From: Kolteria novifilia
Lineage (GTDB): Bacteria > Planctomycetota > Planctomycetia > Kolteriales > Kolteriaceae
NCBI RefSeq assembly: GCF_007748055.1
Contig: NZ_CP036279.1
Reading direction: 5' to 3' (one strand)
DNA length: 64,000 bases
Part shown: positions 33,461 to 52,523 of the stretch, in pieces
Layout: each line of letters begins with the position of its first letter
How positions within the stretch are numbered: the stretch's first letter is position 1
The notes under the pieces: generated by a model
Databases searched by the model: none
What the model saw: the letters and a program-made list of their open reading frames with translations, nothing else
What the model was told of the DNA's origin: nothing
Translations under genes and position numbers: made by a program

Positions 33461-34016
33461 ATTCGTCGAGAGAACGTGGTTCGGTTCATCGCCGAACCGG
33501 TGCCCGAGACGAGCGCACGAAAAAGCCCGACATCATCGTGACGCCGGGCATGGGGGATCGTGAGTGTCGCCCACTCGTCACCACCTGCCCGGGAGCGTCG
33601 CGAATCCCTGCTGAAGGAATGCGTCGCGCCGCCTCGTCGGAAAGATTCGCGGTTGTAGCTCGTTGGCAGCCAACATGGTCACCCCTCCGTCACGTTCACT
33701 CGACGATGCTAGAGACTCGTTTGGAAAGGGTGCGGTTCGCCGGTTTCTCGGAATTCCAAGCGTTTTTGTGGTGAGAATCAGCGGGGGTGGCATCGGGAGT
33801 CGACGCCATCTCCTCTTGAAATCGGTATCGTCAGTAGAGGGGCTTCGCGGGGTTCGTGGGCCTGACGCGAATGACGCGAGCGGCGACGCGAAGGAATGGG
33901 ACGTTCGTGGCGCGGAGTGAGAAGGGACGAGTGCCCATCGGCGAGTTGACGATCTTTTCGCTTGGGGAAGACCGTGGGCTTGGTTGGGACGAGGGATCAA
34001 ACGAGAACGCGACTCG

Positions 34017-36278
34017 ATGATTGGATTCGATGAACTCTTTCTGACGTACGTGGCTGCCACGGAGAGGGAGGTCTGGGGCGACATCCTGGGAGCGATTCAA
34101 CGTCTTCCGACGCCGACACCCGGCGAAGGCTCCGTGCGGCAGGCATTGGTCAACTTCGGGGTTCTCACCGCGGAGCGGCTCGGGAAGCTCGAGGAACAGC
34201 TCGGCGCCATGCTCGACGAGATCGACTGGAACCCGAAGACGGCCTTGAGAACGCTCCGCGAACGGCTCGAACCGGGCGACCGGCGTATCCTTCAGCGCTG
34301 GTTTCCCGAGACGAGTTCGCTGGAAGAGGTTCCCGAGCATCGCACCCAGTTCGTCATGGACAGTTTGTACGCGCGGGGCGGACTGGGGGAGGTTTGGCGG
34401 GTTCGCGAGTCGGGAACGGGCCGTATGGTGCTTCTCAAGCGCATGCGTCAGGAACTAGTTTCCGACCCGATTCTCGTGAAACGCTTTCTTCGGGAAGCAC
34501 GCATGACCGCGAGGCTCGAGCATCCGAGCGTCGTTCCCGTCTATCACGTTCCCGACGAGGCGACCGACGAAGGTCCGTTCTACGTCATGCAGCACCTTCA
34601 CGGCCGGACCCTCGAGGCGAGCATCGCCCAACTTCACGTCTCGGAAATGTCCGGTTCCGATCGACGCGTGATGTTGCGCGACCTGTTGCGCCGTTTCCTA
34701 AGTGTCTGTGAAGCGGTCGCCTTCGCCAACTCCCAGGGAATCGTCCATCGCGATATCAAACCCGAGAACATTATCTGCGGCGAGTTCGGCAGCACCTACT
34801 TGATCGACTGGGGATTGATCAAACTGGTCGAGCGCGGGGAGGAGACGGCCGCGTTGCCCTCGCCCTCGCCCATGGTGAAGGGGGCGACCGTCGCGGGCGA
34901 ACGGGTCGGGACGCCCGAATGGATGGCGCCCGAGCAAGCCAGTGGAGGAGATGTCGACATTCGCACCGACGTCTACGGGTTGGGAGCGACCCTCTTCACC
35001 ATCCTGACGGGGGGGCCTCCTCATCAAACGGCGCCGATTCTGGTGGCGACTTATCGCCGGATCGTGGACGAACCGACCCCGCGCCCCCAGGACCGCAAGA
35101 GCTCCGTCTCGCCGACGCTCGACGCGATCTGCGCCAAGGCAATGGCCAAGAGGCCGGAGGATCGTTATCCGTCGGTCAAGGAGATGGTCCGCGACTTGGA
35201 ACGTTGGGAGGTCGGTGAGCCGGTTTCATGTCACAAGGAGAGCCTGAGTCGGCGACTTGCCCGAGGGCTGATGAATCGTCCCTCGCGCTCAATCGTGCTC
35301 GGAGGCGTGATCCTCATCTCGATGTGTTGCACGCTATTGATCGCGGCGGCTTGGAGCGTCAGCTCGTCGCTGACCAAGAAGATGACGCGGAAGCTCATGG
35401 ACGAGAAGTCGAACTCGATCGCCGCGATCTTGGACAGTGAGTTCCAGCGGGTGCGGGTCGATGTGCTGTTTCTCTCCCGTCTTGGGGATACCGTCGCCGC
35501 GTTGAGCGATCCCGAGGGAGTGAGTGGCTCGGAGGACGATCTGTCGTATTTGAAGGCCTTCCTGCAGATGCGGCCTTCCTTCGAGAAGGTTCGCATCCTC
35601 TTTCCGCCCGGTGTCTCCAAGAGCTATCTCGAAGTGAAACGCGTTGGCCACGAGAAGTTCGAGGTGAAGCGTCGCGGCGATCCGATGGAGATGCTCACGC
35701 GTATCGCGGAACTTCGGGATTCGGAAGCGAACGAGGTCGTTCTCTTGAGTCGACTCGAGGAACCTGGGGCCGGCCACCACCTGCAATCGCAAGTCGTTCT
35801 CGGAACCAAGGTCACCGAAGACAAGAGAGTGATCGGCTATCTCTTGGTCAACGTTTCGCTACCGCCACTATTCGACCACGCCGTCGGCCAGCACCAGTTC
35901 GCGAGCATCGGGTTTGTCAACTCGGTCGGTGAGCAACTTTGGTGGAGTCCCGCTTCCAGTGAAGCCGACGACCAACCGAGTTGGCACGACGTCGACACCT
36001 TGGTCGGCCCGGCGGCGTTCGCCAAGGACCATGCGCCGGGAATGTTGATCGAGGACGATGGGCTGCACGTCACGGGTGTCCGCTTCCTCGACGCGACGCT
36101 CGGGAAGAACACCGCCAAACTGGCGGTCGTCATCTCGGCCAACCTCTGGGACCTCCCGCATGGCCCGCGAGAGTTCGTTCTGACGTTGCTCTACTACACC
36201 GTGGCGATCATCGTGCCAATCATCCTCGTGGGGGCGTTTCTGCGGCTCCTTCTCGTCCAGGTCGCGTTGGATGACTGA
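34017..36278 (+). CDS. Ser/Thr protein kinase with a TM-anchored C-terminal sensor region
   Basis: Start MIGFDELFL, an N-terminus conserved with its paralog. Kinase motifs VHRDIKPENI, DWGL and GTPEWMAPEQ. TM helices VLGGVILISMCCTLLIAAAW and the C-terminal VAIIVPIILVGAFLRLLLV. Confidence 0.85.
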   Translation: MIGFDELFLTYVAATEREVWGDILGAIQRLPTPTPGEGSVRQALVNFGVLTAERLGKLEEQLGAMLDEIDWNPKTALRTLRERLEPGDRRILQRWFPETSSLEEVPEHRTQFVMDSLYARGGLGEVWRVRESGTGRMVLLKRMRQELVSDPILVKRFLREARMTARLEHPSVVPVYHVPDEATDEGPFYVMQHLHGRTLEASIAQLHVSEMSGSDRRVMLRDLLRRFLSVCEAVAFANSQGIVHRDIKPENIICGEFGSTYLIDWGLIKLVERGEETAALPSPSPMVKGATVAGERVGTPEWMAPEQASGGDVDIRTDVYGLGATLFTILTGGPPHQTAPILVATYRRIVDEPTPRPQDRKSSVSPTLDAICAKAMAKRPEDRYPSVKEMVRDLERWEVGEPVSCHKESLSRRLARGLMNRPSRSIVLGGVILISMCCTLLIAAAWSVSSSLTKKMTRKLMDEKSNSIAAILDSEFQRVRVDVLFLSRLGDTVAALSDPEGVSGSEDDLSYLKAFLQMRPSFEKVRILFPPGVSKSYLEVKRVGHEKFEVKRRGDPMEMLTRIAELRDSEANEVVLLSRLEEPGAGHHLQSQVVLGTKVTEDKRVIGYLLVNVSLPPLFDHAVGQHQFASIGFVNSVGEQLWWSPASSEADDQPSWHDVDTLVGPAAFAKDHAPGMLIEDDGLHVTGVRFLDATLGKNTAKLAVVISANLWDLPHGPREFVLTLLYYTVAIIVPIILVGAFLRLLLVQVALDD

Positions 36279-36460
36279 CCGGAGACGGAAAACGCACGTC
36301 AATCCGAGCCCGGCGCCGCCGTACAAGGAGTGGGAGCACCTGGTCCGCCCCCGCGCGGAAACCGGCACTTGGCAGGCTCGCCTCGAGGGAACTGCGGCAG
36401 CGATCGTCGGATCAAGTTAGGGACCGGGCACGGATGGACTATTCTTGGGGCATCTGACTT

Positions 36461-36530
36461 GAGAGCCAACGGACTCGAGAGCCAACGGACTCGAGAGCCA
36501 ACGGACTCGAGAGCCAACGGACTCGAGAGC
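36461..36530. repeat. 16-bp tandem repeat gagagccaacggactc x4.4; each junction makes a CTCGAG (XhoI-type) site
   Basis: Perfect copies at 36461, 36477, 36493 and 36509, located 48 bp upstream of the second kinase start. Confidence 0.85.
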
Positions 36531-36577
36531 GCAAGCCGTCGATGGCGTCGGCCGACATTCGGGGGGGGCGAACGCGC

Positions 36578-38827
36578 ATGATCGACTACGACGAGCTGTT
36601 CCTCCTGCTCCTTCTGGCCGAGCACCCCCACAAGATCGCGGGCGCTCGTCGGCTAGCGAGCATGGAAAGCAGTGACGCGACCGACGCGACGCTGCGCCAA
36701 CGGCTCCTGGAGCTTGGCGTCGTCTCGTCGATCGAGTACGAGCGACTCGAGGCACGGCTGACGGCACTCCTTCGGGAGAGCTGTTGGAACGCGAACGCCG
36801 TTCGCGACACGCTGCTGTCATCAGCATCTCTCGATTCTCTGGACGTGATCCGACGCTACTTTCCGATGTTCTCGACCACGCGCGGTTCCGTCAGCGGGAC
36901 GAATTTCCTCAATGAGGGCGTCTTCGCGCGGGGTGGTTTGGGCGAGTTGCTGCGCGTTCGCGAACCCGGCACTGGGCGGGAAGTCCTTCTCAAACGGGTT
37001 CAGCCCGGACTCGGCGACGAAGCCCAGATCCACTCGCGCTTCGAACGCGAGGCCCACGTGACAGCTCAACTCGAGCATCCCAACATCGTCCCGGTCTACT
37101 ACGTGCCGGCGCCGGACGAAGACTCGACGCCGTTCTACATCATGCGACTGCTGCAAGGACACACGCTCGCCGAGGAGATTCGCGACTTCCACGCTCAAGC
37201 ACCGGTGGGCGAAGAGAAGAACCAGAAGATCCAGCAACTGCTTCGTCGTCTCCTTCGGGTCTGCGACGCGGCGGCCTTCGCTCACGACCGTGGGGTGATT
37301 CATCGCGATATCAAGCCATCCAATATTATCTGCGAGGACTTCGGCAGCACCTACTTGATCGATTGGGGGCTCGTGAGGCTGATCGATGCCAAGGAGGAGT
37401 TCGGCGTCCGGTCGAATCTCCTTTCGCGCACTCGCGTCGATTCGGGCACGAAGTGCGTGGGCACCCCCGGTTGGATGTCGCCGGAGCAAGCGACCGGGAA
37501 CGTCGTCGACGAGCGGAGCGACATCTACGCGATCGGCGCCGTTCTCTTCGCGATCCTCACCGGCGACGTTCCTCATCGAGATGCGGACGCCTCACCCAAC
37601 CGGCAGGCGAGCGCCGAGTGGCCGGACGCTCGGGTTCGCGAGCAGTTCGGCCGGGTTTCCAGAACGCTCGGGGCGATTGCCTGCAAAGCGATGGCTTTCG
37701 ATCGTGCCGAACGCTATGCCAACGTCTCCGCGCTTGCCGACGATCTTGACAGATGGACGACGGGGCGTCCCGTCTCCTGCTACCGCGAGCCTTGGATGCG
37801 GAGAATGGCACGCCGCATTGTCACTCATCCCTCGCGTTCGATCTATCTCGGCGGCGCGCTGGTCGTCCTATTTTGCTGCGCGGCCCTCGTCGGTTCCGCT
37901 TGGTGGACCAACAAACGGATCGTGAAACATGCCGCCATCGCCATCACCGAAGACAAGGTCGACTCGATCGCAAGCAGTCTCGAGTACGCCCTGAATCGGG
38001 CAAAGAATGGCGTCCGCCTGCTTGGCCGGTTGCGAGAGACGCTCGATTTGGTCGAGGAAAGGGACGCGACGAAGATCCGAACGATGACGTCGAACGGACT
38101 CGGCACCTTTCTGGCGGAGCGTCCGGAGATGGGAATGATCGCGTTCGCCAACGCGGCGTTCGACGGGAGCATCGTGGAGCTTCGCCGTGGGAATGAGGGT
38201 GGTGGCGTCTTCATCAAGGCGACGACGGAACTTGTCCACGCGGATCAAGTGAGAAGGCATCTCGTGAGGATGGAGGAAGGGACGGTCGCGATGTTTCCGC
38301 GAGAGGCAGGCAAGGACCTCCCCGCGAAGTTCGGATCCGAGATCTTCCTCGGCACCAAGGTCGTCGAAGGGGAAACCTTGCGCGGCTACGTCTGGGTGAC
38401 ACTCGATCTTCGCGAACTCATACTTCACTCGTTGGGCACGATGCTCTACGCCGACGCGTTGATCACCAATTCCGACGGGGAGACGATCTTCTGGCGACCC
38501 GGTAGCATCCGGCGGCGTCAAGAGAGAGTTCCTCCCGAGTTGCCGTCCAGCATCACCTCCTTTCTGCGCGATCGAAGTGACCACACGCGCGGCAAGGTCT
38601 TTCGAGGGTCGGGACGGGTCATCGTGGCGCAGCGTTTTCCCATCGTCTTCGAGGATGCCGGCGAACATCTGGGAGTGGTCCTTTCCCTCAACATGGAAAT
38701 GGCTCCCTTCGGGGAGGAGGCGTTCGCGTGGAGAATGATCGCCGCGGTGATCGCGATCCTCGTACCGATCATCGTCGCGTCGATCTTGATGCGGATGGTC
38801 CTCGTGCAACTCGGGCGGCCGGACTGA
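36578..38827 (+). CDS. Ser/Thr protein kinase, paralog of 34017..36278
   Basis: Start MIDYDELFLLLL. Kinase motifs IHRDIKPSNI, DWGL and GTPGWMSPEQ. It has the same TM-sensor-TM architecture. Confidence 0.85.
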   Translation: MIDYDELFLLLLLAEHPHKIAGARRLASMESSDATDATLRQRLLELGVVSSIEYERLEARLTALLRESCWNANAVRDTLLSSASLDSLDVIRRYFPMFSTTRGSVSGTNFLNEGVFARGGLGELLRVREPGTGREVLLKRVQPGLGDEAQIHSRFEREAHVTAQLEHPNIVPVYYVPAPDEDSTPFYIMRLLQGHTLAEEIRDFHAQAPVGEEKNQKIQQLLRRLLRVCDAAAFAHDRGVIHRDIKPSNIICEDFGSTYLIDWGLVRLIDAKEEFGVRSNLLSRTRVDSGTKCVGTPGWMSPEQATGNVVDERSDIYAIGAVLFAILTGDVPHRDADASPNRQASAEWPDARVREQFGRVSRTLGAIACKAMAFDRAERYANVSALADDLDRWTTGRPVSCYREPWMRRMARRIVTHPSRSIYLGGALVVLFCCAALVGSAWWTNKRIVKHAAIAITEDKVDSIASSLEYALNRAKNGVRLLGRLRETLDLVEERDATKIRTMTSNGLGTFLAERPEMGMIAFANAAFDGSIVELRRGNEGGGVFIKATTELVHADQVRRHLVRMEEGTVAMFPREAGKDLPAKFGSEIFLGTKVVEGETLRGYVWVTLDLRELILHSLGTMLYADALITNSDGETIFWRPGSIRRRQERVPPELPSSITSFLRDRSDHTRGKVFRGSGRVIVAQRFPIVFEDAGEHLGVVLSLNMEMAPFGEEAFAWRMIAAVIAILVPIIVASILMRMVLVQLGRPD

Positions 38828-38942
38828 CGGTCGGGGAAGCTTGCGGGGCGAAGGCGTGTCGGAGGGAGGAACTCGCGAAAGGGGCTCGCTTCGGGAGACT
38901 GACGTCGTGAGGCCTCCCGAAGCCCGTCGGTCGAGCGAATGC

Positions 38943-39248
38943 TCAGTGACCGTGGCGATGACCGGGCAGGGGAAAGGGTTGGATCTTGATCGGCTGGTGG
39001 TGCCGTTGATGGTGATGGTGAATCTTCCGCGGAAAGCCGTAGCGAACGACGGGATAGCCGTAGTAGCCGCGGGGAACATAGGGTCGCACGAAGTAGTTGT
39101 ATCGTGGGTAGTGGCGATAACCGGACTTCGAACCGATGACGTTGACGCCGACGCCCGCTTGCGCGGGAGCCGACCAGACCAGGCACGAGGCCACCACGAG
39201 GGCCAAGGTGGCGAAACTCAATCCGACCTTCTTGCCGAGACGACGCAT
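38943..39248 (-). CDS. Small secreted Tyr/Arg/Pro/His-rich protein
   Basis: Start at M3 (MRRLGKKVGLSFATLALVVASCLVWSAPAQA, a signal peptide), with AAGGAG 8 nt upstream. His-rich tail HHHHQRHHQ...HRHGH. Confidence 0.55.
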   Translation of the reverse strand: MRRLGKKVGLSFATLALVVASCLVWSAPAQAGVGVNVIGSKSGYRHYPRYNYFVRPYVPRGYYGYPVVRYGFPRKIHHHHQRHHQPIKIQPFPLPGHRHGH

Positions 39249-39431
39249 GCTCACAACTCCTTCTGGTGCTCGACGCCTCGGGACTCGATCCGGGCGAACA
39301 GGCTCTTGCGTTTTGAATGACTCCCTGTGTCATTCCTCTGCAAGTACATGGTGAGAATGGCCGAGAGAAGGACAGCGAAAACCTCGCTGGCATGGACGTG
39401 GAGACAGGGGGAAGATTGAGAGAACACCCTC

Positions 39432-40185
39432 GTGGGATCGTGGGATCGTGGGATCGTGGGATCGTGGGATCGTGGGATCGTGGGATCGTGGGATCGTGGG
39501 ATCGTGGGATCGTGGGATCGTGGGATCGTGGGATCGTGGGATCGTGGGATCGTGGGATCGTGGGATCGTGGGATCGTGGGATCGTGGGATCGTGGGATCG
39601 TGGGATCGTGGGATCGTGGGATCGTGGGATCGTGGGATCGTGGATCGTGGGATCGTGGGATCGTGGGATCGTGGGATCGTGGGATCGTGGGATCGTGGGA
39701 TCGTGGATCGTGGGATCGTGGGATCGTGGGATCGTGGGATCGTGGGATCGTGGGATCGTGGGATCGTGGGATCGTGGGATCGTGGGATCGTGGGATCGTG
39801 GATCGTGGGATCGTGGGATCGTGGATCGTGGGATCGTGGGATCGTGGGATCGTGGGATCGTGGGATCGTGGGATCGTGGGATCGTGGGATCGTGGGATCG
39901 TGGGATCGTGGGATCGTGGGATCGTGGGATCGTGGGATCGTGGGATCGTGGGATCGTGGATCGTGGGATCGTGGGATCGTGGGATCGTGGGATCGTGGAT
40001 CGTGGGATCGTGGGATCGTGGGATCGTGGGATCGTGGGATCGTGGGATCGTGGGATCGTGGGATCGTGGGATCGTGGGATCGTGGGATCGTGGGGATCGT
40101 GGGATCGTGGGATCGGTGGGATCGTGGGATCGTGGGATCGTGGGATCGTGGGATCGTGGGATCGTGGGATCGTGGGATCGTGGGG
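39432..40185. repeat. 8-bp microsatellite (GGGATCGT)n, about 94 copies with a few 7- and 9-bp variant units
   Basis: Direct reading of 39421..40190. Every unit carries a GGG tract and a GATC. ORFs in all six frames across it (for example 38518..40212 and 39317..40270) are repeat artefacts. Confidence 0.95.
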
Positions 40186-40291
40186 GCGAGCTTGGCATGC
40201 GCCGTGGAGCAAACGTTCTCACTCCTCGGAAACCCCTGGCCGGCAATCGATCAGGGGCAACGATCGTTGAAGGGTCGGACGACGCGCTCGC

Positions 40292-43200
40292 TCAGGCCGA
40301 ATGGTGGGCCGGTGAGGAGGATCGCCCGAGGAGATGCAGGCACTGGTCCCGGACGTACATCGTGATCGAGAAGAGGGTCGGCACCAGGAAGAGCGTGAAG
40401 ACGGTCGAGACCATCAGCCCACCGAGCACCACGCTCCCCAGACCGCGATAGAGCTCGCTTCCCGCGCCGGGAAAGAGCACCAGCGGCAAGAGACCGAGGA
40501 CGGTCGTCATCGTCGTCATGAAGATCGGCCGGATACGTGTCTGGACGCTCGCGAGAATCGCCTCGGTCGGAGCCATGTCGTCTTCACGCATGTGGTTGAG
40601 CGACTGATGGACGATGAGGATCGGGTTGTTGACGACCGTGCCGATCAACACGACGAAGCCCAGCATCGTCAAGACGTCGAGCTGTTGCGGAAGCTGTCCC
40701 ATCGAGGCCAGGTAGATGTTGAGCGCGTAGAGACCGAGCACTCCACCCACCGCGCCGAGCGGCACACTGAAGATGATCACGAATGGGTAGAGCCAAGATT
40801 CGAAGAGCGCCGCCATCAAGAGATAGGTGATCAGGAGCGCCAGAAAGATGTTAAACCGCAGCGCTTGCCATGTGTCGCGGAGCTTGTCGGCCGTTCCGGC
40901 GAGATGGATGCGATAGCCACCCTTGAGCGAGCCCTGTTCGGAGATCTTGGCGACGACCTCCTGCTGAATGAGGGTCATCGCGTCCTCGAGGGCCATCGCC
41001 GGCGGTGGAGAGACCTCGACGGTGATGGCGCGGATTCGTTCGCGATGATTGATCTGCTCGGGGCCGCTGCTCAACTGAATGCTCGCGAGCGCTTCCAGGG
41101 GAACGACGGCGCCGATCGGGGTGGCGACCGGCAGGGCGCGGACATCTTGCGAACGCTGGGCGAACTGTTCCTGGCCGAGGATCGTCAGGTCGATCTTGTC
41201 ACCCTCGAGGAAGTAGTCGCCGGCGTAGGCCCCGTCGATGAGGGCGTTGGCCGCGTAGCCGAGATCGCTACTGTTGACGCCCATCTGCGCGGCTTGGATC
41301 AGCTTCGGACGAATGTGCATTTCCGGACTCGACAGGTCGAGGCTGGGGACCGGCCGCGCTTGGGCGTCGGGCATCAACGTCTTGACCATGCCCATGACTT
41401 GCCCGCCCAACGCGACGAGCTGTGGAAGATCGGGGCCGGTGATCTCGACGTCGATGGTTCGGCCGGCGCTGAGGCCGCGCTCGAAGAGGCTCGATTGCTT
41501 GGCCACCATGAACGTTCCAGGGAGTTCCTTGCCCGCTTTTTGCACGAGCGGAACCAGGTCGCTCGCTCGCGACTGATCGAGAGCCCGGACGCCGACGAAG
41601 ACACGCCGATCGCGCGAGACGAAGAAGAAGTCACCGATGGCGGGATAGTCCAACGCCTCCAGGTCGACTTCGGCGGGATCGATGTCCCAATAGGGCTGAA
41701 GTGTCGTCTCGACGACCTTGCCCATGCTCGTGAGTTCGTCGAGGTTATAGCCCGGCGGGGGCAGAAGGATCCCGAAGATGAGGTTCCGGTTGCCCGTCGG
41801 TAGATATTCGACTTTCGGCCAGAAGAGATAGCTCAGTCCCAGCGACATCCCGACCAAGAGACCGATGACGAGCAACTGCCTCGCCACGTGTCGCTGGACC
41901 CAGGAGTTCAGCCCGATCACTCCACCGATGAATGCGCCGCCGATGGAATTGACGCCGCGAATCATGCGCGAACGCAGTTCGGTGCCGTCGGCTTGATCGA
42001 AGGAATCGGCATCGGAGTGACCGCCGGGATCATCATCCTGATGGTCGTGAAAGAGCCGTGCCGCCGCCGCGGGAATCACGACGACCGAGACGACGAGCGA
42101 GAGACTTACCGCGGCACTAATCGCCAGCGCGATGTCGCGGAAGAGTTGCCCCGCTTCCTCCTGCACGAAGACGATCGGTAGAAAGACCGCGACGGTGGTC
42201 AGCGTCGAGGAGACGACCGCTCCCCAAACCTCTTCGGTTCCTTTCGCGGCGGCGGTGAAGGGGGGCTCGCCCATCGCGTGGCGGCGATAGATGTTCTCCA
42301 GCACCACGACCGCGTTGTCGACCAGCATGCCGACAGCGAACGCCATGCCCGCCAGACTCACGACGTTGAGCGACCGCCCGAGCAGGTGAAGAATGAGGAA
42401 GGTTCCCACAATACTGATCGGAATCGCCAGCCCGACCACCAAAGCTCCGCGAGCGAACCAGAAACCAGAGCCGATGATCAGCACGAGACAGACGGCGAAG
42501 AACCAAGGTGAGACGTAGGCCGCTCCCAAGGCGCTGGCCAGGATGAGCGGAATCACGATCATCGCCCGCGTTCCGAAGTGAAGGAACGCCATCAGCACGA
42601 CCATCGTCAGCGCGCCGCCGATGAAGATGTTCTGTCGGACCAGGTCGATCGAGGAGTAGATGTAGTCCGTTTCATCGTAGACTTGAACGATTTCCAGGCC
42701 GCGCTCGGCAAGCACGCCCTCGTTGAGTTCGTCGGCCACCTCGCGAAGCGTCGCCATCACATCGAGGACGTTGGCGCCCGTCTCCCGCAGCGCGTTGATC
42801 GCGATACAGGTCTCTCCGAAGCGGTAGACGAATCCATCAGGTTTCTTGTAGCCCAGCCGCGCCACGGCGACATCGCGAATGTAGACCGGAGCGCCGTCGC
42901 GAACCGCGAGCAGTTGCTCCTCGACTTGCTGAGGAGTCCGAAATTGGCCGAGGGTTCGCGTCACCCAACGACGCTTTCCCTCCCAGTAGTCGCCCGCGGA
43001 CGTGTCCTCGTTCTGCGTCGAGAGGACCCGTCGGACATCGTCGACGGTGAGCCGCGAAGCGGCGAGCTTCTGGGGGTCGACGACGACTTGGAGCTCGTTC
43101 TCCAACCCGCCCAGGACGTTGGCTTGGGATACGCCGTAGACCCGTTCGAAGCGCGATTCGATCTCGTCCTCGGCGAATCGCCGCAACTTGATCACGTCGA

Positions 43201-43798
43201 GATCTTCGGGCGGAAGCAGCTTCTGAAAGCGATCGTCGGTCGCGGCCAGACGCCGCAAACGCATCATGATCAGCGACTCAGAGGATCGCAGGACCGAGTC
43301 GATCTCTTCCTTGAGGTCGGGATTCTCCTTTTGGAAGGTGAGAAGATCCTCCCTGGAGGGGCGACGGGCGCTGAGCATGAACCACGCGATTGGCCGATCG
43401 TTGGCGTCCGCGGTACTCAGGACCGGCTTGTCGGAGTCCTCGGGGTAGTCGCGAACCTGTTCCAAGCGGCTAACGACATCGACGACCGCTTTGCGCATGT
43501 CGGTCCCGACGGCGAACTCGAGGATCACCCGCCCGCGCGAGTCGGAGCTTTCGGAGGACATCTCGCTGACGCCTTCGACGCCCTTGAGCTGTTCCTCCTG
43601 CTCGACGATGATTTCCTGCTCGATCTCTTGGGGGCTGGCGCCCTGCCACGTCGTATCGACGGTGATCGTGGGAGTTTGGACTTCGGGGGTGAGCTGAAGC
43701 GGCATTTGGTCGACGGCGACCAAGCCGAACAGACTCACCATAAGGACACCGACAGAGACCTTGATCGGATGCCGGATGAGAGAATCGACAAGCCCCAT
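40292..43798 (-). CDS. RND efflux transporter permease (AcrB/CzcA family)
   Basis: Start at M26 of ORF 40292..43873 (MGLVDSLIRHPIKVSVGVLMVSLFGLVAV), as in typical AcrB N-termini. It has 12-TM RND architecture. Confidence 0.9.
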   Translation of the reverse strand: MGLVDSLIRHPIKVSVGVLMVSLFGLVAVDQMPLQLTPEVQTPTITVDTTWQGASPQEIEQEIIVEQEEQLKGVEGVSEMSSESSDSRGRVILEFAVGTDMRKAVVDVVSRLEQVRDYPEDSDKPVLSTADANDRPIAWFMLSARRPSREDLLTFQKENPDLKEEIDSVLRSSESLIMMRLRRLAATDDRFQKLLPPEDLDVIKLRRFAEDEIESRFERVYGVSQANVLGGLENELQVVVDPQKLAASRLTVDDVRRVLSTQNEDTSAGDYWEGKRRWVTRTLGQFRTPQQVEEQLLAVRDGAPVYIRDVAVARLGYKKPDGFVYRFGETCIAINALRETGANVLDVMATLREVADELNEGVLAERGLEIVQVYDETDYIYSSIDLVRQNIFIGGALTMVVLMAFLHFGTRAMIVIPLILASALGAAYVSPWFFAVCLVLIIGSGFWFARGALVVGLAIPISIVGTFLILHLLGRSLNVVSLAGMAFAVGMLVDNAVVVLENIYRRHAMGEPPFTAAAKGTEEVWGAVVSSTLTTVAVFLPIVFVQEEAGQLFRDIALAISAAVSLSLVVSVVVIPAAAARLFHDHQDDDPGGHSDADSFDQADGTELRSRMIRGVNSIGGAFIGGVIGLNSWVQRHVARQLLVIGLLVGMSLGLSYLFWPKVEYLPTGNRNLIFGILLPPPGYNLDELTSMGKVVETTLQPYWDIDPAEVDLEALDYPAIGDFFFVSRDRRVFVGVRALDQSRASDLVPLVQKAGKELPGTFMVAKQSSLFERGLSAGRTIDVEITGPDLPQLVALGGQVMGMVKTLMPDAQARPVPSLDLSSPEMHIRPKLIQAAQMGVNSSDLGYAANALIDGAYAGDYFLEGDKIDLTILGQEQFAQRSQDVRALPVATPIGAVVPLEALASIQLSSGPEQINHRERIRAITVEVSPPPAMALEDAMTLIQQEVVAKISEQGSLKGGYRIHLAGTADKLRDTWQALRFNIFLALLITYLLMAALFESWLYPFVIIFSVPLGAVGGVLGLYALNIYLASMGQLPQQLDVLTMLGFVVLIGTVVNNPILIVHQSLNHMREDDMAPTEAILASVQTRIRPIFMTTMTTVLGLLPLVLFPGAGSELYRGLGSVVLGGLMVSTVFTLFLVPTLFSITMYVRDQCLHLLGRSSSPAHHSA

Positions 43799-43830: not shown

Positions 43831-45192
43831 CTAGAGAGAACTGACCGCGCTGGAGTTGGTCGTGCTCGTCCAACGGACGATGGAGGGTTTGCCCGGACTT
43901 GGTGGCTGAATCCGTTCGTTGCCCTTGATGACGACCAGTTGACCGGCCTTGAGGGCGCCGTCGACGGCGATTCGATTTCCGTCGGCGACTCCCAGAGTGA
44001 CCGGGATCGGCTGGACCGGGCCTTCATGCCAGGACAAGCCGTTGGGACCGTCGACCGACTGAACATCGCTGGGATCGACCGTCCAGACCACCGCGTTTCG
44101 TCCCTTGATGACCAGGGCGTCCTTGGGGACGAGGATCGCGGGGCGCGTCGGTCCCGTCGGGAGCGTGACCCGAGACATCATGCCGGCCTTAATGAGCGGA
44201 TGATTGTCGACCATGCGATTCTCGACGCGAACCTTCACCGGGAACGTTCGGGTTCGTCCGTCGGCCTTGGGAATGATACTCGCCACCTCGCCGACGAAGA
44301 CCTCGCTGGGAAGGGCGGAGATCTCGACACGAACCTCGTCGCCAATCCGCAGGTGCGGGACATGATCCTCGAGCACGTGCGATTCGACCTCGACGATGTC
44401 GAGAGCGACGACCTCGGCGACGGGATCGCCTTGGCTGACCCACGCGCCCAGTTCGGTGTGTTCGACGGTGACGAAACCGTCGAAACGCGAGATGATGGTG
44501 TGCTTTTTCATCTGATCGCTCAGTTTCTCAACCAGGGCACGCTGCATCGCGACGCGGGCGCGGGCTTGGGCGAGCACCTCCTTGCGGGGGCCTTCGATCA
44601 CCAAATCGAGCACCGCCTTGGCTTCGTCGAGCATCTCGGCCGCTTCGATCGAGCCGGAGACCGCGAGTTCGAGTTCTTCGACGGAGAGGGCCTTGCTGCG
44701 CCGATAGATCTGCTCGGCGCGTTCCCTCTTGGCCTGGTGGTACTCCATGAGAGCTTCGGCCGCCTTCATCCGTGCCTTCGCCTGGGCGATCTCTTGCGGA
44801 CGCGATCCGTTCTCCAGTTCGGCGAGTTCCTGCTCGCGAAGTTGGAACTCTGCCTTGGCGCTTTCGAGCTCCAACGCGATCGTTTCGGTCATCAATTGAG
44901 CGAGTTTTTGGCCTTTTTCGACGCGATCGCCCTCATTGGCCGCCAATTCGATCACGCGACCGTGAACGGCGCTACCGACGACGGCGGTTCGTGAGGGATG
45001 GGCCGTGCCGACGAAGGTCTGCCCAGTCGAGATCTCGCGCTTGATCACGGGAGTGACCGCGACGACGGGGGCCTCATTCTGCGCGGACGCGGGCAAAGCG
45101 ATCAGACCGACGGCGAGCAAGGCGAGAATGGGAGAGAGAACGAGCATCGAAGATGGACGGGGTTCTCGGTTGGATGCGGTGGAGAGTTTCAT
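43831..45192 (-). CDS. RND efflux periplasmic adaptor (membrane fusion protein, HlyD family)
   Basis: Start at M14 (MKLSTASNREPRPSSMLVLSPILALLAVGLIALPASA), with GGAG 8 nt upstream. Coiled-coil and beta-barrel MFP sequence. It lies 32 bp upstream of the permease. Confidence 0.85.
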   Translation of the reverse strand: MKLSTASNREPRPSSMLVLSPILALLAVGLIALPASAQNEAPVVAVTPVIKREISTGQTFVGTAHPSRTAVVGSAVHGRVIELAANEGDRVEKGQKLAQLMTETIALELESAKAEFQLREQELAELENGSRPQEIAQAKARMKAAEALMEYHQAKRERAEQIYRRSKALSVEELELAVSGSIEAAEMLDEAKAVLDLVIEGPRKEVLAQARARVAMQRALVEKLSDQMKKHTIISRFDGFVTVEHTELGAWVSQGDPVAEVVALDIVEVESHVLEDHVPHLRIGDEVRVEISALPSEVFVGEVASIIPKADGRTRTFPVKVRVENRMVDNHPLIKAGMMSRVTLPTGPTRPAILVPKDALVIKGRNAVVWTVDPSDVQSVDGPNGLSWHEGPVQPIPVTLGVADGNRIAVDGALKAGQLVVIKGNERIQPPSPGKPSIVRWTSTTNSSAVSSL

Positions 45193-45708
45193 GAGCACTC
45201 CAAAGGAAGGACTAAATATGGTTCGGAGCATACGTCGCGTGTCTTCGTGGCGGACCGGCGCTTTCGTGAGCCATCGCGTCAGTCGAGAAACCGTCCTACG
45301 TGGTTACTGTCAACGCCGTCGACCGGTCCACAGGCGTCTTCGGATCGCCGGCTTGGTTGATCGTGCTCAGCATCCAGCCGAGCGGTGGTCTCGTGTCTTT
45401 ACCGCAACATCCCCTTGCGGTGAATTCAGGTGAGATCGAGGAAGCAGGGGTTCCGGGTGTGGGCGTCACTGCTCTGTAGGGGTGACGAGCGAATTCTTGA
45501 CCACTCATTCACCTAGTGCCGAGTCTACTCTCCGGTAAAGAAATTGGCAAGCGGAGAACTTACGCGAGTCGAAGTCGCCTCCCCGGCGCCGTTTCCGACG
45601 CGCCAGCGAGGGGTGAGGGGACTCAGCGCCTTGGCCCGAATGGCGTGACCAGTAGGTCGTGGCGGTTTGTCCCGAACAGGATCCCGAGCACCGCTTGATG
45701 TCCTCTCT

Positions 45709-48225
45709 TTATCCGTGACCCGAGTGGCCGTCCGTCGGCAGCGGTGGGGGAGCGATCGTTCGGCCGAAGAGTTCGTGGATCAATCCATCGCCGACCGCGG
45801 GGGATGCCACCACGTTGTCGCGACTGGTGTTGAAGGGAGCGATCAGCTCTTGGCTCTTCATCGAGGAGACGCGAACGCCCCCGAGGTAGGAGTCCTCGAA
45901 CGCGAAGAAACTGTCCAGTTGCTCGATGTTGGGATGGTGATGAACGTGGCTGAGCGGATCGTCGTCGACGTTGCCGTAGATCTTGATGTTGCCACGAGCT
46001 CCCGTCCCGGAACCGACGATCATGTCGGTGTAGCCGAAGCCTGTGATCTGTCCGGCTCCGACGAAGACGCCCCCCAGGAAGTCCGGGTCGAAGGCCATGA
46101 AATTGGCCATCAGGGCACTGACGGCGATCTCCCCGGTGGGGAGGATGTTGTTCAGTTGCTCGCTATCGATGACGCGAAGATGCGGGGGGCCACCGAAGCC
46201 GGCTCCGGTGATGATGGCGGCGAATCCATCGCCGACGATGTCTCCCGCCGCCACGCGCACTCCACCGGAAAAACTTGGGTCGTAGGCGTAGAAACTCGCG
46301 AGTTCGGCCAGTCCGACGGCATTGAACGCCCGAACGTGAGGCCCCGCGCCGGCGCCCGCTCCCACCACGAGGTCGCAGAAACCGTCGAGGTTGATATCGC
46401 CGCCGGAGACCGAGACGCCGCCGCGGAAGGACTGATCGAACGCGTAGAAACTGTAGAAGAGGGCACTGTCACTGATGACGCCATTCTCGTCGATCTGATC
46501 GAGCTTGGTTCCGTCGATGACCTTGACGTGCGGTCCGGCACCAGGGCCGGCGCCGACGACGACGTCGTAGAAGCCATCCTTGTTGACATCCCCGATCGCC
46601 GTGGAGACGCCCCCTAGGAAACTCGGATCGAACGCGAAGAAACGAGAGACGACCTCGTTGGTGACGGGGCTAATGATCTCGACGACGGGAGGGCTCCCCT
46701 CGTCGACGCTGACCGCGAAGATCGGATCGTTGGGGATCATGGTCACGCCCGCCATCATGCCGTGGTCTTCGTGAATGAGCCGATGGCAGTGGTAAACGAC
46801 ATCTCCCAGGAATTCCTGGAACTCGATCCGAATCGTGACCGTGGTGCCGGCCGGAATGTTGACGATGTCCTGCCAGATGCCGAGGCCTTGGGCGCCGACT
46901 GGTCCCGGTCCGGAGATCACTTGTTGGGGGTTGGTGTGGAAGTGGAAGGGGTGGTCCTGGGAAGAGGAGTTGACGAGCGTCCACTCCTCGATCGTGCCGA
47001 TTCTCGGTTGAAAGACCGGATTGTTCGGATAGGCCTGCGCGTTGATGAGCTGGAAGCCATTCTCGTCGCTGAACTCGGCAACCCGATAGGCGGCAATTTC
47101 CGTCGGCTCGACCACGCGCAGATCGCGGAAGAGGTTGTTCGGTGCCTGGAGCGTCGAACCGGTTTGGGGCGCGACGAACCCCGTCGGGGCGTCCCAGGGT
47201 TCTCCCTCGAAGCGAATGGTCATTAGGGTTCGGGCCGGCCATACGTTGGTCGGATCGGGATTCCCGGGAGATGGGCCGAACCCGATCGTTTCGAGCGTGT
47301 ACTCCTGGCCGGGAACGGGGTTGTCGGGCGCCTTGACGAGAACCGACCAGCGCGAACCCGTCGGCATGCCGAGGGTCGCCGGGTTGCCTGCGGGACGTGG
47401 GTTGCCCACTGTCGAGAAGGGTTGACCGTCCCGGGCGACCGCAAGCCATGGAATGGGCTCTTCGGGAGCGGTGGAGTCGATGAGTTGCAGTCGGTAGAAG
47501 GCATCGCTACCCGCGTTGACGATGTTGAAGACGCGCCATCCACCCGGCTGTATCGTCATCAGCGGATTGAGCTGCCCATTGACGGTAATGATCTGCTCGT
47601 CGTGGAACTCGCCGTCCGGCGGAACGCGAACTTCGCCGTCCTGAACCCAAGTGTGCTGGATAACGAGGTGGTTCTGAACGAGTCCGTCCAACTCCGGGAA
47701 TCCCCCGTCGGCCCGGCCGATGACGAGCATCCCGGCTTGTCCCTTCGCGACTTGCTCGTTGACCAGGCCGTGACGATGGGGATGGTACCAGTGGGTCCCG
47801 TCGGGATGGTCGTCGGGGATGTCGAACTCGTACTGAAACGACTCGCCCGGATCGATCTGAATCAACACGTTGTCGCTGTTGCCCAACGGAGAGACGTGCA
47901 AGCCGTGGGTATGGAGGTTGGTCTGTTGCGGCAGATCGTTGACGACGTTGATCCGCATCGTGTCGCCGGGATTGGCCTGGAGGAGCGGGGCGGAGAGCTC
48001 GCCGTTATACGTCCAGACGTTCTCGGCCAAGACATCACCGACCATCGCGGGGCCCACGGTTTGCATGAGCGTCACGTCGAGCACACCGTCTTGACTGGCG
48101 AGCAACTCGGGTTCTTGGAAGGGGTCGAGGACGGGAACAATCCGCTCGGATAGGCACTCGAATGTCAGGGCCGGATGCGTTATGGAGCTCAATTCTTGGT
48201 TCGCGTCGCCGCGTCGATCCGTCAT
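45709..48225 (-). CDS. Multicopper oxidase (laccase/CopA-like) fused to C-terminal FG-GAP (integrin-alpha-like) repeats
   Basis: Copper-ligand motifs HTHGLHV, WYHPHRHG and HCHRLIHEDHGMM. There are 4 or more FG-GAP-like repeats of the form FDPSFLGGVSTAIGDVNKDGFYDVVVGAGPGAGPHVKV. Confidence 0.85.
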   Translation of the reverse strand: MTDRRGDANQELSSITHPALTFECLSERIVPVLDPFQEPELLASQDGVLDVTLMQTVGPAMVGDVLAENVWTYNGELSAPLLQANPGDTMRINVVNDLPQQTNLHTHGLHVSPLGNSDNVLIQIDPGESFQYEFDIPDDHPDGTHWYHPHRHGLVNEQVAKGQAGMLVIGRADGGFPELDGLVQNHLVIQHTWVQDGEVRVPPDGEFHDEQIITVNGQLNPLMTIQPGGWRVFNIVNAGSDAFYRLQLIDSTAPEEPIPWLAVARDGQPFSTVGNPRPAGNPATLGMPTGSRWSVLVKAPDNPVPGQEYTLETIGFGPSPGNPDPTNVWPARTLMTIRFEGEPWDAPTGFVAPQTGSTLQAPNNLFRDLRVVEPTEIAAYRVAEFSDENGFQLINAQAYPNNPVFQPRIGTIEEWTLVNSSSQDHPFHFHTNPQQVISGPGPVGAQGLGIWQDIVNIPAGTTVTIRIEFQEFLGDVVYHCHRLIHEDHGMMAGVTMIPNDPIFAVSVDEGSPPVVEIISPVTNEVVSRFFAFDPSFLGGVSTAIGDVNKDGFYDVVVGAGPGAGPHVKVIDGTKLDQIDENGVISDSALFYSFYAFDQSFRGGVSVSGGDINLDGFCDLVVGAGAGAGPHVRAFNAVGLAELASFYAYDPSFSGGVRVAAGDIVGDGFAAIITGAGFGGPPHLRVIDSEQLNNILPTGEIAVSALMANFMAFDPDFLGGVFVGAGQITGFGYTDMIVGSGTGARGNIKIYGNVDDDPLSHVHHHPNIEQLDSFFAFEDSYLGGVRVSSMKSQELIAPFNTSRDNVVASPAVGDGLIHELFGRTIAPPPLPTDGHSGHG

Positions 48226-49251
48226 GGTTCCTCTCCGTCGGGTGCACCGTTCTGGTGTGACTGTATTTTGTAACGTGTTGTTTGGGAATAGGTTACGTTG
48301 CCGGTGGCTGCATGGTTACAAACCTGCACTTGGTACGCAAGAGGTAGGCGGGGAAGATTGGGTGAAGTTGAGAGGTCGATGCCGCATGACCGGAACGGGG
48401 AGCGGTTTCGGGGAGGTCGCGGAACGGCAAACGTCGAGCAACTCGTCGCCAGGGACATGGGAGATGGAAACGCCACCCGAAACCTGATGTCTCTGGGTGG
48501 CGTCGGAGGTCGGCTGCGAGTCCGACCGGCAAGGTGTGACTCGTGTTCGAGGCTTCTCTTGCGCGGTGACGAAACTTCGTCACCTCGCCGTTTGCCTGGA
48601 AAATTGGCTTGGTCCTGGAACGCCAACGCCCGAATCGGCTGAAAAACCAGGCCGGATTGGCTCGGTGACGCCGGGCCCCTGCAATGATACGCCACCTGGG
48701 TGGCGTCCGGATCCCACACGAGCCAGCCGGCCGAGGAGCGATCTCCCCTCTTCATGACCCACAGTTTCACAATAGAGCCACATGATTTTCCTCGCATTTC
48801 CACCACGCCGGTTTAATCACTACGGTTTGCTAGACGAAGTCCGGAGGAGCGAGCACTGGCAAGTCGCAACGACATCGCTTCGGAGGCGACGCGGATAAGA
48901 GCGGACACAAGTTCCATTGGAATGACACCTTTTGCAGGGTGATAGCGGTGGCTTTGAATACTATTATAAGCTCCATCGAAACCGCAATGGGCATTCGGCT
49001 GGTCAATGGCAGGGGATCCTCGTGCGGCCCACAAGACTGAACCGTCAAGCCCAAACTAGCCAAGTTGCGTTCCCAATCCTTGCACACTGTGGCGGAACCG
49101 AGAACAGATCGTACGCCGGTCCATTGCGTTTCGTTGAGAGCTAGGCAGTTTCTCTTCTCGACCGGAAAAGGCTCCAAAACAAATGGACAATCCATCGCTA
49201 CGCCAGGCTTCGTTGCCAGGACTGTGCCCGATTTCCCACGCGTTAGAGGAC

Positions 49252-50904
49252 ATGGCTTCCAGTGGGAATGAAGAACGAGGAGCCATTTTCACTCGACGCG
49301 AGGTAGTCGACTTCGTTCTGGACATCCTTGGGTACTCGGTTACGAAGAGGCTGCACAAGAGACGGCTACTCGAGCCGTCTTTCGGGCATGGCGATTTCTT
49401 GCTTCGTGCAATCGAAAGACTGTTGCACGCTTGGTCACAAGAGAATGGCGAACGGGACCCCGATGACCTAGAGAATGCCATACTCGGCATTGAACTACAT
49501 CAAGCCTCATATGAAACCACTCGCGAGCGAGTAATCGAGAACCTGAAGTCTTCATTTCCTCAAAGCACCGCAGCACGTCTCGCGGACTGCTGGTTAAAGC
49601 AAGGTGATTTCCTTCTCATCGATATTCCTGGCTCTTTTGACTTTGCAGTCGGGAACCCTCCATACGTTAGAACTGAGAAGATACCTGACGCCCTCATCCG
49701 TGAGTACAGGCGACGCTACCACACCATCTACGACCGAGCAGACTTGTACGTGCCGTTCATAGAGCGATCACTGTCATTGCTCGCCGACGATGGCCAACTG
49801 GGTTTTGTTTGCTCTGACCGCTGGATGAAGAACCGCTACGGTGCGCCGCTACGGCGAATGGTGGCCGAGGGATTTTTCATGAAGTATTACATCGACATGA
49901 CGGGGAAAGACGCGTTCCACAGCGATGTCACGGCGTATCCCGCGATTACCGTGATATCCCGCGAGTCCGAGGGAGTGACGAAGGTGGTCAGCAAAGATGA
50001 CTTTAGCATGGACGTCTTGCAAGACCTGTCGCGGGAGCTTCTGGAAGACGCTACACCGGTGGCCCATAACCCCCAAATTAGAACGGCAAGCGGGTTTGCG
50101 AATGGCGAATCTCCATGGCTGCTGAGTAGTTGTGAACAACTAGCATTGGTACGCCGTCTCGAAAGGGATTTCCCCACAATCGAGAACGCTTACTGCCGAG
50201 TAGGAATCGGCGTTGCAACAGGCGCGGACAAGGTGTTTATCGGGCCATTCGACGAGCTAGATGTCGAAGAGGAGAGGAAGATTCCCTTGGCAACGACACG
50301 GGATATAAATTCTGGCCGCGTGTCTTGGACTGGTCTCGGAATTGTTAACCCGTTTGAAGAGTCCGGGAAGCTAGTTGACCTGAGTGCATATCCGAAGCTT
50401 AGGCGCTTCTTTGAACAAAGAAAAGCTGATCTCGTGAATCGCCACGTCGCAAAAAGATCACCGAGAAACTGGTACCGCACAATTGACCGGATACATGCCA
50501 ACCTTGCATCTACGCCAAAACTATTGATACCAGACATCAAAGGCCACGCGTCGATCGTATTAGAGGACGGTCGGCTCTATCCCCATCACAATCTCTATTT
50601 CGTAACTTCGGAAGAGTGGGATCTTGAGGTGTTGTTAGCCATCTTGCGAGCTGGGCTCGCATTCCTCTTTGTTTCGCTCTACTCAACAACGATGCGAGGT
50701 GGATGCTTTCGTTTCCAAGCCCAGAACCTTCGCAGAATCTGCTTGCCACGTTGGGAGGATGTGCCACGAGTTGCAAAAACATCGCTAAAAAATGCTATCA
50801 AGGAGGGCGACTTGAGTGCTTGCCGAGAGCTGACGGCGACGTTGCTTGGTATGACCGACAATGAAAAGCAAGTGTTCAGGGAAGTTACGGCGGAGTTAGT
50901 GTGA
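49252..50904 (+). CDS. N6-adenine DNA methyltransferase (gamma-class, type II RM)
   Basis: Start at M24 of ORF 49183..50904 (MASSGNEERGAIFTRREVVDFVL). Motif I LEPSFGHGDFL and motif IV FAVGNPPYV. The region is lower-GC. Confidence 0.85.
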   Translation: MASSGNEERGAIFTRREVVDFVLDILGYSVTKRLHKRRLLEPSFGHGDFLLRAIERLLHAWSQENGERDPDDLENAILGIELHQASYETTRERVIENLKSSFPQSTAARLADCWLKQGDFLLIDIPGSFDFAVGNPPYVRTEKIPDALIREYRRRYHTIYDRADLYVPFIERSLSLLADDGQLGFVCSDRWMKNRYGAPLRRMVAEGFFMKYYIDMTGKDAFHSDVTAYPAITVISRESEGVTKVVSKDDFSMDVLQDLSRELLEDATPVAHNPQIRTASGFANGESPWLLSSCEQLALVRRLERDFPTIENAYCRVGIGVATGADKVFIGPFDELDVEEERKIPLATTRDINSGRVSWTGLGIVNPFEESGKLVDLSAYPKLRRFFEQRKADLVNRHVAKRSPRNWYRTIDRIHANLASTPKLLIPDIKGHASIVLEDGRLYPHHNLYFVTSEEWDLEVLLAILRAGLAFLFVSLYSTTMRGGCFRFQAQNLRRICLPRWEDVPRVAKTSLKNAIKEGDLSACRELTATLLGMTDNEKQVFREVTAELV

Positions 50905-52274: not shown

Positions 52275-52523
52275 CTAGGGTTTGATCGCGTTGACCTGGA
52301 CGCTGGCGGCGAAGTCGTTGATGTTGTGCTTGCGGATCAGCTCGGCCAACTCCTCGTGCAGCGTCGCGGCCGAGGGCGAACAACAGTCGCCGCCGTCGAC
52401 CACCTCCAACGGTGAAGAGGGCTCGCCGAGGGCCGAGGGTGGGGCACAGCAACCGGCTTGGTTCTCGGCTTTCGCGTAGGCGTTGAGGTCCTTCTTCGTG
52501 TCGACGACCTGAAGACCCGCCAC
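52275..52523 (-). CDS. Doubtful small ORF with paired-Cys motifs (possible gene remnant)
   Basis: ...AGCCAPPS...GGDCCSPSAATLHEELAELIRK. It abuts the MCO fragment breakpoint. Confidence 0.2.
   Translation of the reverse strand: MAGLQVVDTKKDLNAYAKAENQAGCCAPPSALGEPSSPLEVVDGGDCCSPSAATLHEELAELIRKHNINDFAASVQVNAIKP

Follow-up and report, generated by a model that had tools for sequence, protein, structure and literature searches.

An unusually large G-rich octanucleotide repeat between an efflux pump gene and a small orphan gene in Kolteria novifilia

Free-living bacteria with large, GC-rich genomes are known to carry long simple-sequence repeats (LSSRs) with units of 5-11 nt (Mrazek et al. 2007, as summarized in PMC4692102 and PMC4679880). 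In Xanthomonas (GGGAATC) and Nostoc (GGGGA(C/T)T), heptamer arrays occupy ~185 loci per genome; their unit number ranges from 2 to 26 and is most commonly four. These arrays are transcribed, are found in intergenic regions flanked by open reading frames (ORFs) of the same orientation, and vary in length between close relatives (PMC4692102), and they form G-quadruplexes (G4s) in vitro, with no function found (PMC4692102, Rehm et al. 2015). TAACTGA heptamers of the Beggiatoaceae, Cyanobacteria, and Bacteroidetes form arrays of up to 43 copies at ~170 loci per genome (MacGregor 2015, PMC4679880). The simple-sequence repeat (SSR) contingency loci of pathogens, such as the AGAT repeat of Moraxella uspA2 and the tetranucleotides of Haemophilus, have units of 1-7 nt that are usually present in fewer than ~40 copies and sit in a reading frame, a core promoter, or a leader; for these loci, a link between expression and copy number has been demonstrated. 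Here we describe a tandem array of the octamer GGGATCGT in the genome of Planctomycetes bacterium Pan216 (CP036279), now named Kolteria novifilia, the description of which does not mention repeats (PMC12288469).

The window, by which we mean the whole 64-kb stretch of DNA that was analyzed, has a GC content of 61%. The features in and around the array, all of which are referred to below, are as follows.

45709..48225, - strand: multicopper oxidase gene
43831..45231, - strand: gene for the membrane-fusion (periplasmic adaptor) protein of the pump (Pfam HlyD_D23 and HlyD_3)
40292..43798, - strand: gene for an RND inner-membrane efflux pump of the AcrB/HAE1 type (Pfam ACR_tran, E = 2.9e-190)
40186..40291, - strand: 106-nt spacer that separates the array from the RND stop codon (40294..40292), defined from the sequence
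39430..40185, + strand: octanucleotide array of GGGATCGT units with partial units at both edges (TRF and unit parse)
39249..39429, - strand: 181-nt spacer that separates the array from the small-gene start codon, defined from the sequence
39251..39349, - strand: possible 32-codon upstream ORF, MYLQRNDTGSHSKRKSLFARIESRGVEHQKEL (coding score)
38943..39248, - strand: Pan216_26100, a 101-aa orphan protein (translation and GC1/2/3)

TRF placed the array at 39430..40184 with a period of 8, 94.9 copies, 97% matches, and a score of 1450. A unit-by-unit parse resolved 94 whole units, arranged head to tail over 748 bp (39434..40181), of which 86 are GGGATCGT, six are GGATCGT, and one each are GGGGATCGT and GGGATCGGT. 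These two analyses agree with an earlier note on this DNA, which had reported about 94 tandem 8-bp copies at 39432-40185 and about 94 GATC sites; the GATC count inside the array is 94. Each of the eight variant units differs from the consensus by a single G gained or lost at a G run, and not one substitution was found across the 94 units and 748 bp of the parse. The G-rich strand of the array is the + strand, and the - strand, (ACGATCCC)n, is the sense strand of both flanking genes. An exact 24-nt match to three units is expected by chance ~5e-10 times per 64 kb, so an array of this size is beyond chance. Elsewhere in the 64-kb window there are no further tandem dimers of GGGATCGT and no simple repeats of comparable length, and single octamers outside the array number four per strand, without skew. 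The array is therefore solitary within the window. A scan of species genomes yielded no second Pan216 locus, a result to be read with the fact that the same scan also missed the window's own array. Both the copy number and the eight variants come from one assembly, which is the sole genome of the species.

By its iteration (94.9 copies with zero substitutions) and by its location (an intergenic, non-coding site in a 61% GC window of a 7.6-Mb genome), the array belongs among the LSSRs of 5-11-nt units. As far as the summaries of Mrazek et al. convey, it shares with those repeats the unit class, the intergenic site, and a large (7.6 Mb), ~61% GC, non-pathogen genome, whereas their emphasis is on heptamers and many-locus genomes and the Kolteria array is a single locus of extreme length. 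Like the Xanthomonas and Nostoc heptamers, it combines a G3 tract with a short A/T/C loop, head-to-tail order, an intergenic site, and a comparable G4Hunter score (1.10 versus 1.14), and its G-rich strand is antisense to the downstream ORF, as is often the case for the heptamers. Unlike them, its unit is 8 nt long with 5-nt loops instead of 7 nt, its 94 units far exceed their mode of 4 and maximum of 26, and it is solitary in the window instead of being one of ~185 loci per genome. The gaps also differ: the heptamers lie within ~50 nt of the neighboring ORFs, whereas the Kolteria array is separated by 106 nt from the preceding stop codon and by 181 nt from the ORF that follows. In addition, the phylum is different, and the GATC palindrome in the Kolteria unit permits competing hairpins. 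Because the array lacks two defining features of the Xanthomonas/Nostoc family, namely the heptamer unit (GGGNATC or GGGGAYT) and the many dispersed loci, it was assigned only to the broader LSSR class.

The TAACTGA arrays offer a second comparison, as they too are short-unit tandem repeats upstream of genes, occur in unrelated phyla, and are occasionally long. They are, in contrast, AT-rich, contain stop codons, and usually lie a few nucleotides from a start codon, whereas the Kolteria array is G-rich, stop-free, solitary in the window, and twice as long as their longest. With pathogen contingency loci it shares a slippage-prone repeat beside the gene of an exported protein. Its hundreds of base pairs of pure repeat with regularly spaced G tracts are reminiscent of eukaryotic microsatellites and telomere-like arrays; unlike the latter, it is chromosome-internal, and no role in end protection or as a centromere is indicated. 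A dimer of GGGATCGT was not found in the literature searched. The size of the array had been called exceptional for a bacterium, and the published arrays of 5-11-nt units that we found bear this out, as they reach 26-43 copies; the Kolteria array has two to four times these published maxima. In short, G-rich bacterial simple repeats that are prone to slippage are a known class, and the Kolteria array is an unusually large member of it.

All of the flanking genes, from the multicopper oxidase through the small gene, are on the - strand, and the RND pump gene is the last of a membrane-fusion protein (MFP)-RND pair. The 1168-aa pump protein is 100% identical to 'Efflux pump membrane transporter BepE [Planctomycetes bacterium Pan216]', and its next-best homologue has only 72% identity. 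In the two nearest relatives (L003 and L004), whose orthologous pumps are 71-72% identical, the gene order is MarR-MFP-RND, followed downstream by unrelated genes. On the other side of the array, Pan216_26100 is annotated as a hypothetical protein. Its translation begins with a Sec-type signal peptide (MRRLGKK...SAPAQA|G) and continues with a Tyr/Arg/Pro/Gly-rich middle and a His-rich C-terminus (HHHHQRHH...GHRHGH), and its GC1/2/3 values of 0.65/0.44/0.74 are gene-like. A word-indexed search of 5.8 billion proteins returned only the self-match, HMMER over 1.8 billion representatives returned one weak match to a repetitive protein, and no Pfam family was assigned. The earlier description of the array as lying between an RND pump gene and a small His-rich secreted-protein gene is thus borne out by Pfam for the pump and by the translation and signal peptide for the small gene, as is its placement 5' of the latter, since the array ends 181 nt before the ATG.

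The two spacers are unremarkable in structure. The 106-nt spacer contains two stem-loops, both without a U-run after them, and its predicted RNA fold (-43 kcal/mol, z = -1.56 versus shuffles) is not significant; no terminator-like site and no Rfam family were found in it. The fold of the 181-nt spacer RNA is equal to that of shuffled sequences (z = -0.33). A Shine-Dalgarno-like AGAAGGAG lies at 39264..39257, 8 nt 5' of the Pan216_26100 ATG. A scan of 38700..40500 for sigma-70-like promoters and intrinsic terminators recognized none, in a phylum whose promoters are poorly known, and an Rfam search of the array and its surroundings gave no family, the only match being a chance one to H19 (E = 0.36). 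The 181-nt spacer may hold a small ORF upstream of Pan216_26100, running from an ATG at 39349 to a TGA located 2 nt 5' of the small-gene ATG. The 58-codon frame at 39254..39427 has a coding-like score of 0.407, strongest in its last 32 codons; this score is reached by 1.1% of non-coding frames, or ~6% allowing for six frames, and a homologue search with the candidate ORF was empty. We regard this possible ORF as a weak lead.

To place the repeat among other organisms, exact tandem copies of the octamer were counted in public collections. At least four tandem copies occur at only two other loci among 185,579 species, each represented by one genome, and at least three occur in 36 of 241 million metagenome records; no trimer was present in the viral collection. 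The arrays found elsewhere have 3-21 units, and their hosts are unrelated and span 33-74% GC, which argues that octamer arrays arose independently many times. Nowhere else in the scanned collections does the octamer come near 94 copies, a comparison bounded by short-read assemblies, which cannot span long arrays; several of the metagenome arrays end at contig ends. Most of the short bacterial arrays occupy small gaps between genes of the same orientation, and their G-rich strand can be the sense or the antisense strand. In one locus (L002), a hybrid histidine-kinase gene has its start codon directly next to an array of 12 GGGATCGA units followed by eight GGGATCGT units, and in another (L001) the GATC itself is changed, for example to GGGAGCGT.

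Direct evidence that the GGGATCGT unit slips in bacteria comes from a pair of near-identical contigs, L014 and L038, in which the array is flanked by genes for a PagL-like protein and a peptide-chain release factor. Their flanks are identical at 286 of 288 positions, and their arrays differ by exactly 16 bp, that is, by two units. A marine locus carries 7, 8, 10, 11, or 12 units in different samples. This locus is the intron of a eukaryotic class-III aminotransferase gene, beside a carnitine acyltransferase gene, and it was therefore ruled out as evidence for slippage in bacteria; at this intron, the octamer behaves as an ordinary microsatellite.

The secondary structures available to the repeat were examined by prediction. 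The array fits the canonical G4 motif of at least four tracts of three or more G with loops of 1-7 nt, and a regular-expression search of the + strand returned six long blocks that are broken only at GG variants; the only other G4 motifs in the window are two unrelated ones at 21620 and 21889. The G4Hunter score of 1.10 is below the usual cut-off of 1.2, and with the G4 option of ViennaRNA switched on, the minimum-energy structure is still a slipped GATC hairpin. For eight units, the predicted DNA hairpin has a free energy of -12.7 kcal/mol on the G strand versus -4.4 kcal/mol on the C strand, with the G strand predicted to pair through GATC:GATC and G.T pairs. Since each unit carries a GATC palindrome, either strand can self-pair in any register. 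It is well established from triplet repeats that such self-pairing classically promotes slippage, with large expansions and contractions as a result. By these calculations the G4 propensity of the array is marginal, and a slipped hairpin through GATC is predicted to be at least as stable as a G4. The nearest relative that has been tested, (GGGAATC)3GGG of Xanthomonas (G4Hunter 1.14), forms a G4 with a Tm of 50.4 C in 100 mM KCl (PMC4692102). The proposal that the spacing of the G tracts is ideal for G4s can accordingly be kept as a motif match, whereas the word 'ideal' is at odds with the G4Hunter score, the preference of ViennaRNA for the hairpin, and the Tm of the relative.

On balance, we moderately favor the reading that the array is a hypermutable repeat without a selected switch function. 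It would be a non-coding LSSR that owes both its origin and its homogeneity to slippage of the strands in replication or repair. We infer this mechanism from features of the repeat: the self-folding GATC units would favor slippage, the G-rich strand is predicted to fold more stably, and the G3 tracts could stack into G4s. Because there are no substitutions in 748 bp, the copies appear to be of very recent origin, which suggests a recent expansion and a turnover by expansion and contraction that outpaces point mutation. We think that the present size of the array is not that of a selected on/off switch. Counterpoints to a neutral repeat are that bacterial genomes tend to lose useless DNA, such that 755 bp are unexpected unless expansion is very fast or something maintains the array, and that the site upstream of a secreted-protein gene fits the look of a contingency locus.

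A hypermutable repeat at this site could still affect its surroundings. The - strand of the array consists of 50% C and 12.6% G, and no other stretch of the window reaches its C/G ratio of 3.97; it has 37 YC dimers per 100 nt, and the predicted structure of the C strand is weak. RNA that is untranslated, C-rich, and G-poor recruits Rho. In composition, the array matches what is expected of a rut site, for which a minimum of 70-80 nt after a stop codon must be untranslated, rich in C, poor in G, and weakly structured as RNA. Transcription across the array would yield ~750 nt of untranslated RNA with this Rho-loading composition, and the template strand would be the G-rich, structure-prone one. 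Judging from base composition, the array probably damps read-through from the pump operon into Pan216_26100, and expression of the small gene would then depend on start signals of its own, located in the 181-nt spacer. Such insulation would vary gradually with the number of units, without on/off flipping.

Several other identities were considered and rejected. A replication origin is ruled out by the cumulative GC skew, which rises steadily across the window with no change of sign, and the unit is not a DnaA box. A Chi- or KOPS-like oriented octamer is not in keeping with four copies per strand outside the array and no skew. The array has no spacers, as a CRISPR would, and iterons or a centromere-like site have neither a partner protein nor other evidence in their favor. 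Contamination by an adapter was dismissed for lack of any resemblance to the unit.

Among the fuller explanations, one is that the array is an artefact of assembly or consensus calling, such that its length and its 7- and 9-bp variants are wrong or the whole array is spurious. All eight variants are single-G indels at G runs, a typical residual error of long-read consensus sequences, and the Pan216 assembly is presumably long-read based. Short reads, for their part, cannot be placed uniquely in a 750-bp perfect repeat, and short-read metagenome contigs often break at the octamer. Set against this, independent short-read assemblies carry GGGATCGT arrays, both flanks are unique, the gene order across the array is coherent, and to our knowledge no sequencing adapter or control resembles the unit. 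We consider an artefact improbable, whether of the length and the variants or of the whole array. The 7- and 9-bp units, each of which gains or loses one G at such a run, bear the signature of either cellular slippage or residual long-read consensus error, and may thus be spurious. A protein-coding repeat, either (HDPTIPRS)n on the - strand or (GIVGSWDR)n on the + strand, is another candidate, since all six frames of the array are free of stop codons and ORFs of 305-564 aa traverse it. The three frames of each strand share one cyclic octapeptide, GIVGSWDR on the + strand and HDPTIPRS on the - strand, so indels of +/-1 nt do not truncate an array ORF; the argument that variant units break any reading frame, made in the earlier note, fails on this point. 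The 58 codons past the array are also weakly coding-like in one - frame. The composition of the array itself speaks against coding, as its GC1/2/3 values are flat (0.61/0.59/0.64) compared with those of real genes (0.65/0.43/0.78), which upholds the note's conclusion that the array is unlikely to be coding. The portion of the - strand ORF upstream of the array has a non-coding score of -0.40. A comparison of the array translation with Pfam gave only a sub-threshold match to Cornifin, a low-complexity artefact. The array ORFs match none of the annotated Pan216 proteins, and their one homologue is itself a degenerate repeat ORF. Given the flat codon-position GC, the lack of a Pfam family above the cut-off, and the lack of a real homologue, the array is very probably non-coding, and we find a protein-coding repeat barely credible.

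The remaining explanations assign a selected function to the array. As a contingency locus, phase- or rheostat-variable, it would alter by slippage either the spacing or helical phase between an upstream element and the Pan216_26100 promoter or the 5' leader of the gene, and so generate subpopulations that differ in expression of the secreted His-rich protein. Its position 5' of a secreted-protein gene, the slippage of the unit in other organisms, and the related array that abuts the start codon of a hybrid histidine-kinase gene are consistent with this, and there are precedents in repeats located upstream of surface-protein genes or within their leaders, such as the AGAT repeat of Moraxella uspA2 with 6-23 copies (as summarized in PMC4679880). 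The array nevertheless ends 181 bp 5' of the ATG and is not in the frame of the gene, and no sigma-70-like hexamers were recognized in or beside it, with the reservation that planctomycete promoters are poorly defined. Its far side is the 3' end of another gene instead of a regulatory region, and 94 units far exceed what a switch needs. Moreover, switching through multiple SSR loci is typically seen in host-adapted pathogens, unlike the free-living Kolteria, and the window has no second such locus. The suggestion of a contingency or phase-variation locus found no support in the 181-bp distance to the ATG or in the promoter scan of the array and its borders, and we judge it unlikely. An alternative that makes more direct use of the composition is a selected insulator, in which the G-rich template and the C-rich, Rho-loading transcript end the pump operon and shield the downstream gene. 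No intrinsic terminator was recognized between the RND stop codon and the small gene, the - strand is a window extreme in its 50% C and 12.6% G over 750 nt, and transcription of both flanking genes uses the G-rich strand as template. About 80 nt of C-rich, G-poor RNA is enough for Rho, however, so that 750 nt would need another explanation, and the G4 propensity is marginal; in addition, the gene maps of L003 and L004, as maps and not DNA, show other downstream genes and no such element. Selection for insulation thus seems quite unlikely, and a selected, length-programmable form of it, in which the unit number sets the leak from the pump operon into Pan216_26100, seems very unlikely. Were the latter true, a microsatellite of eukaryotic style would serve a bacterium as a rheostat and offer a natural bacterial model of repeat expansion. 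Finally, the 94 GATC sites within 755 bp could be imagined as a methylation element, either an epigenetic switch or a sink of the Dam or SeqA kind. Known Dam switches have two or three GATC sites inside binding sites for Lrp or OxyR. The window has no Dam-type methylase, its only restriction-modification system being an Eco57I-like methylase with an XhoI-like nuclease (49183..51626), and no regulator partner is evident in it. Outside the array, GATC is unbiased in the window (571 observed versus 569 expected from trinucleotides), and related arrays mutate neighboring bases and sometimes the GATC itself (GGGAGCGT in L001). The methylation-dependent switch that had been proposed finds no support in the window, and we hold it to be highly improbable.

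Read as a hypermutable repeat without a selected switch function, the array is of value as an unusual specimen and a possible natural model of repeat instability, with no new mechanism indicated. A substitution-free octamer in 94 copies in a closed genome is an outlier relative to the 26-43 copies reported in the literature found. Since arrays of this kind break short-read assemblies, their true frequency in bacteria is probably underestimated. If the array is real and variable, it would provide a tractable natural system in which to study how bacteria tolerate, expand, and contract structure-prone repeats, and in which to ask whether G4 or hairpin DNA forms in bacteria in vivo and whether such arrays influence neighboring genes.

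Units of the 94-copy octamer array of Kolteria novifilia, or related ones, occur in other organisms, in the following settings:

L002 (a betaproteobacterial MAG locus) 3513..3680, octamer array
L018, L024, L025, L027, L029, L030 and L035 (marine-sample loci; e.g. L025 2438..2525), copy-number-polymorphic octamer microsatellite
L001 (a Bacteroidetes MAG locus) 1..160, mixed octamer array (GGGACTGT, GGGAGCGT, GGGATTGT, GGGATCGT)

The betaproteobacterial array borders immediately on the start codon of a hybrid sensor histidine kinase (1083 aa). It comprises a single AAGATCGA unit with 12 of GGGATCGA, followed by eight of GGGATCGT. Because both sub-arrays are pure, this arrangement suggests a single point mutation and then separate expansion. 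The unit of the polymorphic microsatellite is the Kolteria novifilia octamer itself, present in 7-12 units that vary across marine samples; it occupies an intron of a eukaryotic gene for a class-III aminotransferase, with a carnitine acyltransferase gene adjoining. The mixed Bacteroidetes array is opposed by inverted GGGACTGT-like units, and these facing sets resemble the convergent repeat pairs reported from Xanthomonas.

Within the window, the following features were found besides the octamer array:

14000..15130, second large intergenic repeat, flanked by the - strand ORF 12720..13850 and the DUF1501 gene 15140..16552
21600..21915, REP-like palindromic elements (CCCCTCTCCC...GGGAGAGGGG)
36456..36530, 16-bp tandem repeat (GACTCGAGAGCCAACG), 4.7 copies
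39251..39349, - strand, possible 32-codon upstream ORF whose TGA precedes the ATG of the small His-rich orphan gene Pan216_26100 by 2 nt
49183..51626, Eco57I-like methylase and XhoI-like endonuclease pair

In the frame of the possible upstream ORF, the 58 codons past the octamer array have a coding-like score that is matched by ~1% of non-coding frames; a search for homologues of this ORF found none. Pan216_26100 is convergent with the second of two adjacent, similarly sized + strand genes for Ser/Thr protein kinases (33984..36278 and 36542..38827; 764 and 761 aa). The ORF of this second kinase starts 12 bp downstream of the end of the 16-bp repeat, which creates four consecutive XhoI sites (CTCGAG) in the same window as the methylase and endonuclease pair. 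The pair sits in a low-GC island (52-56% GC), and the overall CTCGAG count gave no depletion (50 observed vs 54 expected).

Two multicopper-oxidase-domain genes lie near the RND pump (45709..48225, a fusion with an FG-GAP repeat, and 52337..53239). Together with the His-rich orphan protein they hint that the neighbourhood is metal-related, though the pump belongs to the HAE1 (drug/solvent) type.

The REP-like elements include a 33-bp unit in 4.6 copies, and their region is flanked by two copies of GGGAGAGGGGTTAGGGGTGAGGGGG, the sole G4-motif matches in the window besides the octamer array. In the second large repeat, tandem units of 51-52 bp with a hairpin-forming core (GCATACCTTCGGCATGC...) make up three blocks (~940 bp in total) organised as a 385-bp higher-order repeat. 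Since it occurs in addition to the octamer array, long intergenic tandem arrays seem to be a habit of the Kolteria novifilia genome.
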